This document shows, piece by piece, positions 1 through 5,223 of a DNA stretch of 5,223 nt (position 1 is the stretch's first letter; each line of letters opens with the position of its first letter). The DNA lies in IMG/VR virus record IMGVR_UViG_2740892230_000026; one strand, written 5' to 3'. The translations under genes were made by a program, and so were the position numbers. This DNA comes from a virus. Its lineage: Duplodnaviria; Heunggongvirae; Uroviricota; Caudoviricetes. The notes below the pieces were generated by a model. It was not told the DNA's origin. It worked only from the letters and a program-made list of their open reading frames with translations, and did not search any database.

Positions 1-22
1 TAACACTGTGTTACCTGGCTAA

Positions 23-646
23 TCAGAATTTATAGCCGATACCCACGATGAAGCCGTCAGTGCGCCAGTCGCCACTGGCGGAACCTTCATAAGCAAGGTC
101 AATAACCACCGTCTCTACGGGACTGAACTGAATCCCGGCATTCCAGGCCGGCGACAGATGACGCGCAGTATGGCCATCACTGGCGGTGGTGGTCTCCTTC
201 ACATACCCCGGTTTCACTTCATCACGCCGGTAATCCTGAACACTGTCAGACCAGCGGGTGTACGCCATCCCGGCCATGCCATAGAGACTGACCCGCTCAC
301 TGAGCTGCCAGACAGGGCCGGCCATCAGACTGACATAACGACCGCGCAGGCTTTCATAATGGAAGGTATTTTCACCCGTCTTCATCGTGTCACTTTTCTT
401 CACCGATGCATAACTCAGCGCGACAATGCCGCCCAGGTGATCCGTGAACTCATAACGGTATTTCACATTAATCCCTTTTAAATCACCTGCACGCGCACCG
501 GTACCGGACAATGCCGGTACGCCGCCCGGGTGAACCTGAGCATATCCCACGGAAAATGCACCGTGTCCGCTTTCAGCCTGTGCAGGAAGGGAAATGCCTG
601 TCAGCAGTGCGGTCCAGAATAAAATGGCTCCGTATAAATGTCGCAT
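23..646 (-). CDS. lom: Lom-family outer membrane beta-barrel protein (Ail/Lom/PagC/OmpX family), lambdoid prophage lysogenic-conversion gene
   Basis: Complete 207-aa ORF on the minus strand: ATG at 646..644, TGA at 25..23. A GAGAGG Shine-Dalgarno-like motif sits about 5 nt upstream of the ATG. The N-terminus MRHLYGAILFWTALLTGISLPAQA/ESG looks like a signal peptide with an AxA cleavage site. The C-terminus ends ...DWRTDGFIVGIGYKF, the aromatic terminal residue typical of beta-barrel outer membrane proteins. The motifs NVKYRYEFTD and AYEGSGSGDWRTDGFIVGVGYKF match my recollection of phage lambda Lom, and the gene sits immediately downstream of J as in lambda. Confidence 0.9.
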   Translation of the reverse strand: MRHLYGAILFWTALLTGISLPAQAESGHGAFSVGYAQVHPGGVPALSGTGARAGDLKGINVKYRYEFTDHLGGIVALSYASVKKSDTMKTGENTFHYESLRGRYVSLMAGPVWQLSERVSLYGMAGMAYTRWSDSVQDYRRDEVKPGYVKETTTASDGHTARHLSPAWNAGIQFSPVETVVIDLAYEGSASGDWRTDGFIVGIGYKF

Positions 647-670
647 GATGACCTCTCGTTTTCAGTCAAT

Positions 671-695
671 AAAAAAGGCACCTCCTGAGGTGCCC
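671..695 (-). terminator. Rho-independent terminator downstream of J (analogous in position to lambda tJ)
   Basis: On the minus-strand transcript the sequence is GGCACCU-CAGG-AGGUGCC, a 7-bp GC-rich stem with a 4-nt loop (plus coordinates 677..694), immediately followed by UUUUUU (plus A-run 671..676). It lies 19 nt after the J stop codon (716..714) and before the lom ribosome-binding site. The T-tract is on the minus strand only, so it terminates minus-strand transcription only. Confidence 0.55.
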
Positions 696-713
696 GTCCG
701 GGTTAATAAACCG

Positions 714-2369
714 TCAGCTGATACTGATCCCTGCTGTGGATTTTTTCATGACCACAACCAGTAAATCACTGATGTACGTTGTCGGCGTCCAGTTGTTCGC
801 ACCGGCCGACGACACATTAAACGTCAGGGTGACATGACCCCGCCCTGCCGGCATATCTATCACCGATGAGAACACCCGGCTGACATCCGTTGCCGGTTCA
901 TGGAAAATCTCAACCCCGTTCTTCAGCACCTGCAGCTTACAGGTGGAATACCAGTACGACTGCTGATTCGGGCTGTTGAAATTCTGGTGTTTCGTCCCGC
1001 GAAACAGCACCGGGGGAATGATGATCTGCCGGTCGAAGCCCTGGTCATCGTAAACTGTGACGGTTACCGTCCCGCTGGCATAACTGTTATTCCGGGGAAA
1101 GGCTTTCCCCACCGTCTTCACCAGGTCGCCTTCAATCTGGTTTGCAGACAGTTTCCCTCTGATGACACAGTTCTCGTTAATGGTGACATTATTGAGCGTG
1201 CCGGTATTCGCGGTAATTGCTCCGCTGATATCCGCGTTCCTGGCTGTCAGCTTCCCTTCCGGCGTCAGGGAAAACGTCGGGGGGTTGCCGGATGACGTGA
1301 TACTCACCGCAAACAGTCGTTTCAGGAACACGTCGTNNNNNNNNNNCGGCGTCAGGGAAAATGCCGGAGGATTGCCGGATGACGTGATGCTCACCGCAAA
1401 CAGTCGTTTCAGGAACACGTCGTTCATGAACAGCTGATTCCCCTGCGCCACAAATAACGGCGTGCTGTTGCCGCTCTCCGGATTTATCATCGCGATACGG
1501 TCAGCCAGCAGCAGTATGTTGCTCAGTGGCTGGCCATCAGTATCCTCAATCCCTGCACCAATCCCGGCCACATAGGGTATGCCATTTTTTGTTTTCTGTA
1601 CCTTCAGCATGTAAAGTGCAGCAAGGTCATCATTTGTGTCCTTCTGCACGCGCTGTANNNNNNNNNNAATGCCGTCTTTCGTTTTTTGAACCTTCAGCAT
1701 GTACAGCGCAGCCAGGTCATCATTTGTGTCCTTCTGCACGCGCTGTATCTGCTGTATGGTGGCGCTCTGGTCCTCCAGCGTTTTACTGACCGTCTGTGTG
1801 ATTTCATTGCGGGTTTCGGTGATGGAGGTCTTCATCTCCGCCATCTCATCCGCAAGCTGGCTGTTGTCTATCAGCTCCCACAGCCCCTGAGCCAGATGCA
1901 GTTTTCCTATTTTTTCCCGAAACAGCCCCAGATACCCTTCTGCATCATTGCTGGCCCGGCCACTGGCTTCCACAAAAGCAGATTTCCCCACCAGGTTGAC
2001 GCTGCGCACGTNNNNNNNNNNCGTGATGCTGGTCTTCATCTCCGCCATCTCATCTGCAAGCTGGCTGTTATCTATCAGTTCCCACAACCCCTGAGCCAGA
2101 TGCAGTTTTCCTATTTTTTCCCGGAAAAATTCCAGATACCCTTCACCATCATTGCTGGGCTGCCCGCTGACTTCCACAAACGCAGATTTCCCCACCAGGT
2201 TGACGCTGCGCACGTAAAACCAGAAATCCTTCCCGGGCTTAATGTGCGGGCCGGATACACTCCACTGACTGCCGGTCCCCAGATAACGGGCAGAGGTTTC
2301 CACCTGAGATGTGTCTGCGATTTTTGCCTCCGAAAACCAGAACTCAAACTGTACCGTCGGGTCATACAC
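714..2369 (-). CDS. J: gpJ C-terminal fragment as an ORF caller would see it (part of the J locus, not a separate gene)
   Basis: Six-frame ORF of 551 aa ending at the authentic J stop (716..714). The apparent start at 2369 is an internal GTG; the J frame continues upstream (...[19 protein letters not shown]). It crosses the N runs at 1337..1346, 1658..1667 and 2012..2021 and so contains duplicated peptides, for example [19 protein letters not shown][A/T]FSLTP twice and [14 protein letters not shown]... twice. Confidence 0.6.
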
Positions 2370-5223
2370 CGCAAGACGCGGGACCGCTGTTATCTGAAAA
2401 TAGCCCGGTGTCAGCTCAATCGTGGCGGGTACCGCAGGTGCATTAATCCTGAACGTGGTGGTGGCCGGTTCCCCCTGCTGGCCATAACTGTTAATCGCCC
2501 TGACTGTCAGGGTGTATTCCCCNNNNNNNNNNCGTTATCTGAAAATAGCCCGGTGTCAGTTCAATGGTGGCGGGTTTTGCTGGCGCGTTAATCCGGAAGG
2601 TGGTGGTGGCCGGTTCGCCCTGCTGGCCATAACTGTTAATTGCCCTGACCGTCAGGGTGTATTCCCCCGGCGGCANNNNNNNNNNGGGCGGCAGACCACT
2701 GAAACGATGCTCTGTATCCGCAGTGATGGCGGTGGTCACCAGACGGCTGTCTTCTCCGCTTCCGCTGGTCAGGCGCAGACTGAAGCGCACACCCTTCANN
2801 NNNNNNNNCGGCGGCAGACCGCTGAAACGGTGCTCTGTATCCGCGGTGATGGCGGTGGTCACCAGACGGCTGTCCTGACCGCTTCCACTGGTCAGGCGCA
2901 GACTGAAGCGCACGCCCTTCACCACCCGCGGCGTGTCCCATTTCGCCTGTGCCAGATACTGACCGTCAGCCGCGCTCACCTCCACCGTGAGGTGCTGCAC
3001 TGCCGGTGGGATGACGCTGTTCAGGGAACCTGACTGCGGCTCAAAGCGGGCACCGTTATCCANNNNNNNNNNATATTCCCCGCTGTCTGCGGTGACTTCG
3101 GCGGTCAGGTGCTGCACCGCTGGAGGGATGACGCTGTTCAGGGTGCCTGACTGCGGCTCAAAGCGGGCACCGTTATCCACGATGGCTTCTTTTTCCGGTA
3201 CGTGCTGCACCGCCGTGATGGCAAAGGTGCCGTCCGTGTTTTCCCGGACGGAGACACAGCGGAACAGGCGACGGCGCAGTGACGGCAGGGAGAGTCCCCA
3301 CACCCCGTATGTCTCCACACCATCAGGCAGGGTACTGACCTGTATCCGGTCCGGCGCGGGGTGTTCGGTGATGTCCACACTCACTGGCTTACCGCTGCCG
3401 TTAATCAGGTTCACCGTGGCGGCACCTGTCTCCGGCAGGGTCACCTCACGGTCCAGTGTCAGGGTGCGGCTGGCGGCATCGATGGACAGGATACGTCCGC
3501 CGGTCATGGTCCCGGCATAGTCGTTANNNNNNNNNNAAGTGTCACTTCACGGTCCAGCGTCAGGGTGCGGGTGGCAGCATCAATGGACAGGACACGTCCG
3601 CCGGTCAGGGTCCCGGCATAGTCGTTANNNNNNNNNNGCTCTGGTCGCCGTCAAAGTGCGCTCCGTTATCCACGATGGCTTCTTTTTCCGGTACGTGCTG
3701 CACCGCCGTGATGGCAAAGGTGCCGTCCGTGTTTTCCCGGACGGAGACACAGCGGAACAGGCGACGGCGCAGTGACGGCAGGGATAGTCCCCATACACCG
3801 TATGTCTCCACACCATCAGGCAGGGTGCTGACCTGTATCCGGTCCGGCGCGGGGTGTGCGGTGATGGCCACACTCACCGGCTTACCGCTGCCGTTAATCA
3901 GGTTCACCGTGGCGGCACCGGTCTCCGGCAGTGTCACCTCACGGTCCAGCGTCAGGGTGCGGCTGGCGGCATCGATGGACAGGACACGTCCGCCGGTCAT
4001 GGTCCCGGCATAGTCGTTATCACAGATTTCAATAATGTCACCGGGTGTGTGACGCAGCCCCTGTGACCCGAGCGTGAAATCCACCGTCTGCGTTTCCAGC
4101 AGTCCGGTCTTTATCACCCACAGCCCGGCACGGTGGGCCTGACCGCGACTGGTGCAACCGAACGCATCCATCTTCAGCAGGTTGCGCCCGTAGCGCAGTA
4201 TGGCTTCCGGGTCTTCCACCANNNNNNNNNNTCGGTCTTTATCACCCACAGTCCGGCACGGTGGGCCTGACCGCGGCTGGTACAGCCGAACGCGTCCATC
4301 TTCAGCAGGTTGCGTCCGTAGCGCAGTATGGCTTCCGGGTCTTCCACCAGTTCCGTGGAGGTCTGCCAGCCGTTCTGCGGGTCGGTGTAATTCACCTCCA
4401 CCGCCGTGTGCCGGTCCTTCAGGGCACTGAAGCTGTAGCGGAATCCCACGCCGTTATCATCCACCACCACATCGCTGTTGGTGTACGGCCACACCACATC
4501 CGACGGGCGGTCCTGAACGAACGTCAGCGTCTGGCCGTTCCATACCGGCATACAGCGCATCGCCGAGCAGAAATCACTGAGAACGTCCCACGCCTTACGC
4601 TGTTGTGACAGGTACGCATTAAAGGTCATCCGCGGCTCTGTGCCCCCGAAACCATCCGGGACCGTCTGGTCGCAGTACTGCCCGATGGCATACAGCGCCC
4701 ACTNNNNNNNNNNCCCTCCGAAGCCGTCCGGGACACGCTGGTCACAGTACTGCCCGATGGCATACAGCGCCCACTTGTNNNNNNNNNNTCCCACACCTTC
4801 ATTGTCAGCCACCACATCACTGTTTGTGTAGGGCCACACCACATCTGACGGACGGTCCTGCACAAACGTCAGCGTCTGCCCGTTCCATACCGGCATACAG
4901 CGCATCGCCGAGCAGAAATCACTGAGAACGTCCCACGCCTTACGCTGTTGTGCCAGGTACGCATTAAAGGTCATCCGCGGCTCGGTCCCCCCGAAACCAT
5001 CTGGGACCGTCTGATCGCAGTACTGCCCGATGGCATACAGCGCCCACTTGTCCACATCCGCGGCCCCCAGGCGTTTTCCCATGCCGTAGCGCGGGTGAGT
5101 CAGCATGTCCCACAGGCACCAGGCCGGGTTGTTGCTGTATGCCGGTTTCAGGCTGCCGTCCCAGATGCCGCTGTACGTGCGTTTTTCCGGGTCATAGTTT
5201 GACGGTACCTGAATGATGCGACC
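714..5223 (-). CDS. J: host specificity protein J / tail tip central fibre (gpJ), 5'-partial (N-terminal part lies beyond the window), interrupted by 12 N10 assembly gaps with redundant overlapping blocks
   Basis: The minus-strand frame is open from the window edge: 5223->5104 translates to [41 protein letters not shown], continuing [44 protein letters not shown]..., which I recognise as the gpJ region that follows the N-terminal portion. Further J-like stretches follow in order down to the TGA at 716..714: ...[16 protein letters not shown]..., ...[34 protein letters not shown]..., ...[29 protein letters not shown]..., ...[18 protein letters not shown]..., ...[15 protein letters not shown].... 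Gene order J then lom matches lambda. The true reading frame is broken and re-entered at the N runs, so a single clean translation cannot be given from this assembly. Confidence 0.88.
2491..3507 (-). CDS. J: gpJ central fragment (artefactual ORF piece of the J locus)
   Basis: Six-frame ORF of 338 aa with J-like sequence ([34 protein letters not shown]..., [14 protein letters not shown]..., [17 protein letters not shown]...). It crosses the N runs at 2523..2532, 2676..2685, 2799..2808 and 3063..3072. Its stop at 2491 is created by the frame shift at the 2523..2532 gap and is not a real gene end. Confidence 0.5.
3605..4249 (-). CDS. J: gpJ central fragment (artefactual ORF piece of the J locus)
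   Basis: Six-frame ORF of 214 aa with J-like sequence ([30 protein letters not shown]..., [40 protein letters not shown]...). It crosses the N runs at 3628..3637 and 4222..4231. Its start and stop are by-products of the gaps. Confidence 0.5.
   Translation of the reverse strand: MGDKDRXXXXVEDPEAILRYGRNLLKMDAFGCTSRGQAHRAGLWVIKTGLLETQTVDFTLGSQGLRHTPGDIIEICDNDYAGTMTGGRVLSIDAASRTLTLDREVTLPETGAATVNLINGSGKPVSVAITAHPAPDRIQVSTLPDGVETYGVWGLSLPSLRRRLFRCVSVRENTDGTFAITAVQHVPEKEAIVDNGAHFDGDQSXXXXTTMPGP
4174..5106 (-). CDS. J: gpJ N-proximal fragment (artefactual ORF piece of the J locus)
   Basis: Six-frame ORF of 310 aa beginning at an internal Met ([14 protein letters not shown]...). The authentic frame is open further upstream to the window edge at 5223. 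It crosses the N runs at 4222..4231, 4704..4713 and 4779..4788, and [13 protein letters not shown][T/R]VPDGFGG appears three times because of redundant blocks. Confidence 0.5.
   Translation of the reverse strand: MLTHPRYGMGKRLGAADVDKWALYAIGQYCDQTVPDGFGGTEPRMTFNAYLAQQRKAWDVLSDFCSAMRCMPVWNGQTLTFVQDRPSDVVWPYTNSDVVADNEGVGXXXXKWALYAIGQYCDQRVPDGFGGXXXXWALYAIGQYCDQTVPDGFGGTEPRMTFNAYLSQQRKAWDVLSDFCSAMRCMPVWNGQTLTFVQDRPSDVVWPYTNSDVVVDDNGVGFRYSFSALKDRHTAVEVNYTDPQNGWQTSTELVEDPEAILRYGRNLLKMDAFGCTSRGQAHRAGLWVIKTXXXXWWKTRKPYCATGATC

Follow-up and report, generated by a model that had tools for sequence, protein, structure and literature searches.

The window analysed here is the whole 5,223-bp stretch of the tailed-phage record IMGVR_UViG_2740892230_000026. 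It is identical to CCPR01000153.1, an entire scaffold of the draft assembly GCA_000752855.1, which is of Escherichia coli type. An exact-protein lookup with a 551-aa open reading frame (ORF) that passes through three runs of N returned one place only, CCPR01000153.1 with its 5,223 bp, so the window is the whole scaffold. Two genes are present, both on the minus strand: an intact gene of the Ail/Lom family (lom) and the 3′ part of the host-specificity, or tail-tip, gene J (Table 1). In RefSeq, the matching DNA is labelled ‘host specificity protein J’ and then ‘Ail/Lom family outer membrane beta-barrel protein’, and the matching loci sit in the usual L-K-I-J-lom-stf tail module. The J stop codon is at position 714 and the gene runs past the end of the window, the N-terminal ~717 nucleotides (nt) being absent from the scaffold. 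Pfam identifies the Ig_GpJ_C domain (PF12421) on a 206-aa C-terminal fragment of J. The subject of this analysis is the arrangement of J itself, which is written as a series of blocks that repeat one another across runs of N. These duplicated blocks are an assembly artefact and correspond to no structure in real DNA.

Table 1. Features of the window. Reference positions are those of L001, a complete E. coli genome.
Feature	Position	Strand	Description
Ail/Lom family outer-membrane beta-barrel gene, intact, 207 aa	23–646	−	ORF; identical protein has Pfam domains PF06316 Ail_Lom and PF13505; RefSeq annotation
Terminator-like hairpin	676–695	−	8-bp stem, 4-nt loop, then a T run (TTTTTATT); between J stop (714) and lom start (646)
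Host-specificity/tail-tip gene J, 3′ part	714–5223	−	RefSeq J is 3,477 nt; tiling on the reference
B0	1–1336		Reference 3002–4337; lom and the 3′ 623 nt of J; 34-nt suffix 1303–1336 recurs at 1390–1423
10-N spacer 1	1337–1346		
B1	1347–1657		Reference 4261–4571; first 77 nt give another allele of 1260–1336; 34-nt suffix recurs at 1714–1747
10-N spacer 2	1658–1667		
B2	1668–2011		Reference 4492–4835; first base variant; 34-nt suffix recurs at 2182–2215
10-N spacer 3	2012–2021		
B3	2022–2522		Reference 4642–5142; 99.8% to the strain 7_33_46A allele; stops 1 base short of the B5/B6 fork (reference 5143)
10-N spacer 4	2523–2532		
B4	2533–2675		Reference 5008–5150; alternative allele of the B3 end; 100% to strain PE164 and to sibling assembly L006
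10-N spacer 5 (8-nt-overlap junction)	2676–2685		
B5	2686–2798		Reference 5143–5255; fork branch, first base G; 100% match in 7_33_46A and in the prophage of 2013C-3264 at 0.43 Mb
10-N spacer 6	2799–2808		
B6	2809–3062		Reference 5143–5396; other branch of the B5 fork, first base C; 34-nt suffix recurs at 3146–3179
10-N spacer 7	3063–3072		
B7	3073–3526		Reference 5290–5743; rare mosaic allele; 34-nt suffix recurs at 3986–4019
10-N spacer 8	3527–3536		
B8	3537–3627		Reference 5653–5743; third allele of the interval under B7 and B9
10-N spacer 9	3628–3637		
B9	3638–4221		Reference 5362–5945; 382-nt overlap with B7, including a 122-nt exact repeat; 34-nt suffix recurs at 4316–4349
10-N spacer 10	4222–4231		
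B10	4232–4703		Reference 5828–6299; 99.6% to the PE164 allele; 34-nt suffix recurs at 5015–5048 in B12
10-N spacer 11	4704–4713		
B11	4714–4778		Reference 6238–6302; third allele of the interval under B10 and B12; 34-nt suffix recurs at 5018–5051
10-N spacer 12	4779–4788		
B12	4789–5223		Reference 6040–6474; 260-nt overlap with B10; reaches the scaffold end inside J

The window contains 12 runs of N, all exactly 10 nt long, and no other N. They delimit 13 blocks, B0 to B12, and lie where the original prediction, made from the letters of the sequence, had placed them. B0 is the unique anchor of the scaffold; this single-copy block includes lom, which lies downstream of J in lambdoid prophages. 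Block-versus-block BLAST and a reference-anchored comparison reveal overlapping content at 11 of the 12 junctions, amounting to 62–382 nt at 81–94% identity, in agreement with the earlier statement that repeats flank almost every N run. The sole exception is the junction between B4 and B5, with an overlap of only 8 nt. Some overlaps skip the adjacent block, as between B7 and B9 or B10 and B12. All five examples given in the prediction were recovered. For 1260–1336 versus 1347–1423 (77 nt, 5 mismatches) and 1578–1657 versus 1668–1747 (80 nt, 9 mismatches) the figures agree, and the comparison now supplies those that had been left out: 20 mismatches over the 194 nt of 1818–2011 versus 2022–2215, for which the length had been stated, as well as 135 nt with 14 mismatches for 2388–2522 versus 2533–2667 and 113 nt with 9 mismatches for 2686–2798 versus 2809–2921, both previously given as coordinates.

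On the reference, the blocks tile positions 3002–6474 without a gap at a depth of 1–3, their ends advancing monotonically and their starts not. A total of 5,103 called bases is written for 3,473 reference positions, leaving 1,630 bases redundant. The J part takes up 4,510 nt, of which 120 are N, against a unique gene content of 2,760 nt, a 1.6-fold expansion; the predicted length of about 4.5 kb was accurate, and the figure of about 2.6 kb for the unique content was slightly low. In 170 complete E. coli genomes the window aligns colinearly to 3,474 bp without duplication. None of 5,426 complete genomes matches every block at 100%, the best of them covering the window at 96–97%; the source lineage is therefore not among these genomes.

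The ends of the blocks carry a regular signature. Nine of the 12 left blocks finish with a suffix of exactly 34 nt which recurs within a later block, and block prefixes share at most 15 nt with anything else. Moreover, nine of 12 blocks open on a variant base, against a background of 9.8% variable sites among the positions covered more than once (binomial P = 1.4e-7). The constant length of the N runs, the exact 34-nt repeats and the variant first bases together indicate that the pattern is not due to chance. The same tangle is found in a sibling scaffold, CCPQ01000057.1 (L006) of GCA_000753515.1, which has an adjacent whole-genome shotgun prefix and was found via the Lom protein. Between positions 2137 and 12457, L006 has 18 N runs, all exactly 10 nt, distributed across K, I and J of the tail module and the C-terminus of the tail fibre. 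Its terminal repeat is exactly 68 nt at nine of the 18 junctions, with the same asymmetry between suffixes and prefixes. Taken as k−1, the suffix repeats of 34 and 68 nt correspond to k = 35 in the window and k = 69 in the sibling, and the recurrence of the tangle makes the artefact systematic for the submitter’s pipeline and not a one-off. A de Bruijn graph accounts for both values: a node printed as the last base of each k-mer (k = 35) starts at the first distinguishing base and ends 34 bases after the last one. We simulated k = 35 and k = 69 de Bruijn graphs, taking three real J alleles as input and leaving off the first k−1 bases of every node in the output, and obtained modal suffix repeats of 34 and 68 nt and prefix repeats of 5–9 nt. 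About ten other draft assemblies have contig ends within 2 nt of the end of B0; these were discarded as independent evidence because the exact-protein lookup finds only fragments cut in the same codon, and the coincidence thus reflects selection bias.

Most of the differences between blocks (122 of 175, 70%) fall at codon position 3, and the changed codons comprise 103 synonymous versus 42 non-synonymous ones. Individual blocks are 93–100% identical at the nucleotide level to RefSeq J genes. B4, B5, B11 and the J part of B0 have matches at 100% in other genomes, that of B0 being with O55:H7 DEC5B, and B3 and B10 come close to this (Table 1). The bias towards codon position 3 and the perfect matches suggest that the blocks differ as real alleles do, not by errors. 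B11 is matched by 64 complete-genome records at ≥99%; the 60 that were listed are all at 100% and include enterohaemorrhagic E. coli (EHEC) O157, O145, O103 and O111, among others. The preferred reference genome varies from block to block, implying that the scaffold interleaves at least three J types. Likewise, two intervals of the reference are covered three times (5653–5743 by B7, B8 and B9; 6238–6299 by B10, B11 and B12), so that the sample must have contained at least three J templates. Thus, the single-copy, colinear layout of the region in finished genomes, the k−1 signature and the allele-like differences all agree with the original reading, namely that a scaffolder joined overlapping contigs that could not be merged and set spacers of fixed length between them.

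Drafts of the same J-lom region from other assemblies (L014 1–60; L010, L012, L013) contain isolated single N exactly at sites where J alleles vary. In one example, CACNTCNTCC in the draft stands against CACGTCATCC and CACCTCGTCC in the alleles. The kind of artefact differs here and the cause is shared: paralogs were collapsed and their polymorphic sites masked.

The explanation that we regard as highly probable is a scaffold artefact of a de Bruijn assembly (k = 35) over multi-copy lambdoid J genes, most likely paralogs of one isolate. The isolate would most likely carry several lambdoid prophages whose J genes, at least three and probably at least four in number, are mosaic and 81–96% identical. 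An assembler working at k = 35 would be unable to thread a single path through such a tangle, and allele-specific nodes would result, each ending where alleles converge and starting where they diverge. Read-pair links could then bring nodes that stem from different J copies to places that overlap, beside the unique lom-proximal anchor B0. Gaps estimated as negative would receive the scaffolder’s minimum spacer of 10 N, and each node would be printed minus its first k−1 bases. The expected outcome is one J gene written 1.6-fold, with alternative alleles placed end to end. The multi-copy and mosaic nature of the J genes of lambdoid prophages in E. coli of EHEC and enteropathogenic (EPEC) type is well known, and there is no biological novelty here.

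As to the program, the original prediction had raised a SPAdes-like assembler as a point to check. SPAdes edges overlap by odd k (21/33/55/77 and so on), which the terminal overlaps of 34 and 68 nt, both even, do not fit. Velvet-type node printing gives overlaps of k−1 for odd k, which are hence even. Even overlaps and a k that differs between samples fit Velvet run with a k optimiser, the minimum gap of Velvet being 10 N, and the assembler was probably of the Velvet type. A Velvet pipeline in which k is set per genome at a value from 66% to 90% of the length of the reads has been described (PMC5320598).

Several observations weigh against this explanation. First, exact repeats longer than 34 nt are found between blocks (36, 41, 73 and 122 nt). 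A strict test, that no k-mer be common to different blocks, failed on these 36–122-nt repeats and was replaced by the terminal-suffix test. Their presence shows that the blocks are not raw unitigs and have been partly repeat-resolved. Second, B3, B4, B5 and B8 end without the 34-nt signature, which points either to further alleles outside this scaffold or to coverage breaks. Third, B7 has no match above 98.5% and could be a mis-threaded chimera, not a real allele. Finally, both the name of the assembler and the copy number of J are inferred from the finished letters, not from reads, coverage or metadata.

B7 is the most unusual of the blocks. The best match quoted above is the best among the 5,426 complete genomes and lies in the allele of strain 2013C-3264, with which B7 is identical at block positions 1–219 and 314–454; all seven mismatches fall within positions 220–313 (94 nt). 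This cluster directly follows the 122-nt exact repeat common to B9. B7 is either a real recombinant allele or the product of an assembler copy switch within the shared stretch. The first 31 nt of B7 and the first 13 nt of B9 diverge from the other blocks, the start of B7 representing a divergent type of J C-terminus. In the J gene matched by B7, the C-terminal part is only ~71% identical to B0–B4. One or more of the co-assembled J copies must therefore differ at the receptor-binding end and continue on another scaffold. Among the loci compared, B8 is nowhere matched above 94.4%, and the 13-nt start of B9 is unique. We consider it possible, although somewhat less so than the opposite, that some blocks are real, unsampled mosaic J alleles that arose by recombination among co-resident prophages. 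If so, the tangle would record ongoing gene conversion among at least four tail-tip genes, one of them with a different receptor-binding C-terminus.

The claim that several similar lambdoid J genes contributed to the scaffold is supported; as to the choice between one genome and a mixed sample, which the prediction had left undecided, one genome is the likelier. In finished E. coli genomes the number of J places has a median of 2 and reaches 13, and most of the listed genomes that contain the rare B11 allele at 100% have several, up to nine. The finished genome of 2013C-3264 is especially informative. A prophage at 3.38 Mb contains the B7-like allele (98.5%) together with B10 (97.9%), and another, at 0.43 Mb, contains B11 and B5, both at 100%. 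The identity between these two J genes ranges from 57% to 100% along their length and they share 18 exact runs of ≥35 nt, a substrate that would tangle a k = 35 graph. Both genes (L025 2508–5902; L026 2479–5954) are annotated as frameshifted pseudogenes; the frameshifts could be genuine, marking tail genes of a prophage in decay, or could stem from indels introduced by long-read assembly.

The foremost alternative retains the artefact and derives the alleles from a mixed or contaminated culture in which each of at least two E. coli strains contributes a J of its own. Paralogs and strain mixtures are inseparable by sequence, three alleles at one position require three templates only, and the scaffold is contig 153 of a fragmented assembly, all of which a mixture would accommodate. 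Nevertheless, the competing alleles differ by 4–19% and lead into different types of J C-terminus, as is typical of different prophages and not of one prophage shared by two strains. Finished genomes with these alleles hold 5–12 J places each, so that multi-copy J is the default, and one of them has competing alleles in two prophages. Furthermore, the tangle recurs in these genes of the sibling assembly, for which a second mixed culture would have to be assumed. We thus consider a mixture unlikely; paralogous prophages in one clone are sufficient and most likely explain the alleles.

Considerably less probable is that a separate scaffolder, reference-guided or based on paired ends, inserted the fixed 10 N after assembly. 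Tools that order contigs likewise tend to insert spacers of one fixed length, and the monotonic block ends on the reference J would follow naturally. However, the blocks lack their first k−1 bases and retain the last k−1, whereas stand-alone FASTA contigs normally share k−1 bases at both ends, an asymmetry that argues for node-wise printing inside the assembler. Blocks of 65–113 nt are also usually filtered out before external scaffolding.

That the blocks are real, either as tandem partial duplications or as variant J cassettes for programmed host-range variation of the diversity-generating retroelement (DGR) or cassette-switching kind, would suit the role of J as a host-range determinant and the scattered positions at which the duplicated segments mainly differ, but we give it practically no credence: all junctions are N runs of identical length; tandem duplication is ruled out by the colinearity in finished genomes, which contain no duplication, and by a k−1 terminal signature that differs between samples; and a DGR or cassette system is ruled out by the reading frame being broken at four of the 12 junctions and by substitutions that show no preference for adenine (A takes part in 78 of 175) and are mostly synonymous, the reverse of what DGR mutagenesis produces. 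The ORF list of the window showed no candidate for a reverse transcriptase or an invertase, the scan against protein families having covered only lom and the C-terminal fragment of J.

The artefact has direct consequences for gene calls. At eight of the 12 junctions the overlap plus 10 is divisible by 3, so that several spacers are traversed by open frames. In the ORF of 551 aa (714–2369, minus strand) there are three XXXX stretches, each between near-duplicate peptides, which bears out the warning that ORFs called across the gaps would be chimeric. Public gene calls on the scaffold (L024) comprise four chimeric J fragments of 349, 204, 338 and 551 aa. In the ORF list of the window, the fragments of J measure 551, 338, 214 and 310 aa, among other lengths, and there is no continuous ORF of ~1,158 aa because of the artefact and the truncation of the scaffold.

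This record and at least one sibling assembly therefore hold a falsely expanded J gene, which calls for a data-quality warning. Chimeric J fragments are already indexed in the protein and gene-position collection that we queried. Such fragments can mislead repeat finders, surveys of domain architecture and host-range analyses based on tail proteins, and could seed false calls of repeats or domain duplication. The combination of a k−1 suffix repeat with a variant first base offers a quick way to recognize this class of artefact without reads, and it recovers k.

The remaining features of the window and its surroundings are as follows. The left end of the scaffold lies 22 nt beyond the lom stop codon, in the lom-stf spacer, and the right end lies inside J; both ends thus abut prophage genes, stf and J, that are likewise repeated. 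The hairpin between J and lom (Table 1) matches the terminator consensus only, one site having been found by the scan versus 0.6 expected in shuffled sequences, which is not above expectation. If functional, it would suggest that lom and the late tail operon are separate transcription units. Among related loci, sodC, encoding a Cu/Zn superoxide dismutase, is located between tail genes I and J in PE164 and GCA_052767385.1 (L001 7325–7852; L005 5795–6322), and ISEc31 lies between lom and J in O55:H7 DEC5B (L002 3680–4893). Several relative loci have type III secretion system effector genes (nleB2, nleC, nleG, cif and an ospG-like gene) downstream of stf.

Compared with lambda gpJ as encoded by lambdoid prophages of EHEC- and EPEC-type E. 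coli, the J gene of this record has the same annotation, the same Ig_GpJ_C domain and the same synteny, L, K (C40 peptidase), I, J, lom and stf. It differs in missing the first ~717 nt, in the 1,630 redundant bases and 120 N it has acquired, and in having no authentic J ORF. As an assembly product, it resembles Velvet-type scaffolds over tangled repeats, with which it shares spacers of fixed 10-N length, nodes that open on the first variant base and end exactly k−1 bases past the last one, an odd k specific to the sample (35, 69) and a tangle confined to the multi-copy gene. Unlike in such scaffolds, some blocks here share exact repeats longer than k−1, so that repeat resolution or read threading must have acted ahead of scaffolding, and the name of the assembler is itself inferred. 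The case is also comparable to haplotig or uncollapsed-bubble duplication in diploid and metagenomic assemblies, where alleles of one locus are likewise placed in series, with inflated length and false duplications as the result. By contrast, the alleles in the present scaffold are most likely paralogs residing in different prophages of a haploid genome and not two haplotypes.

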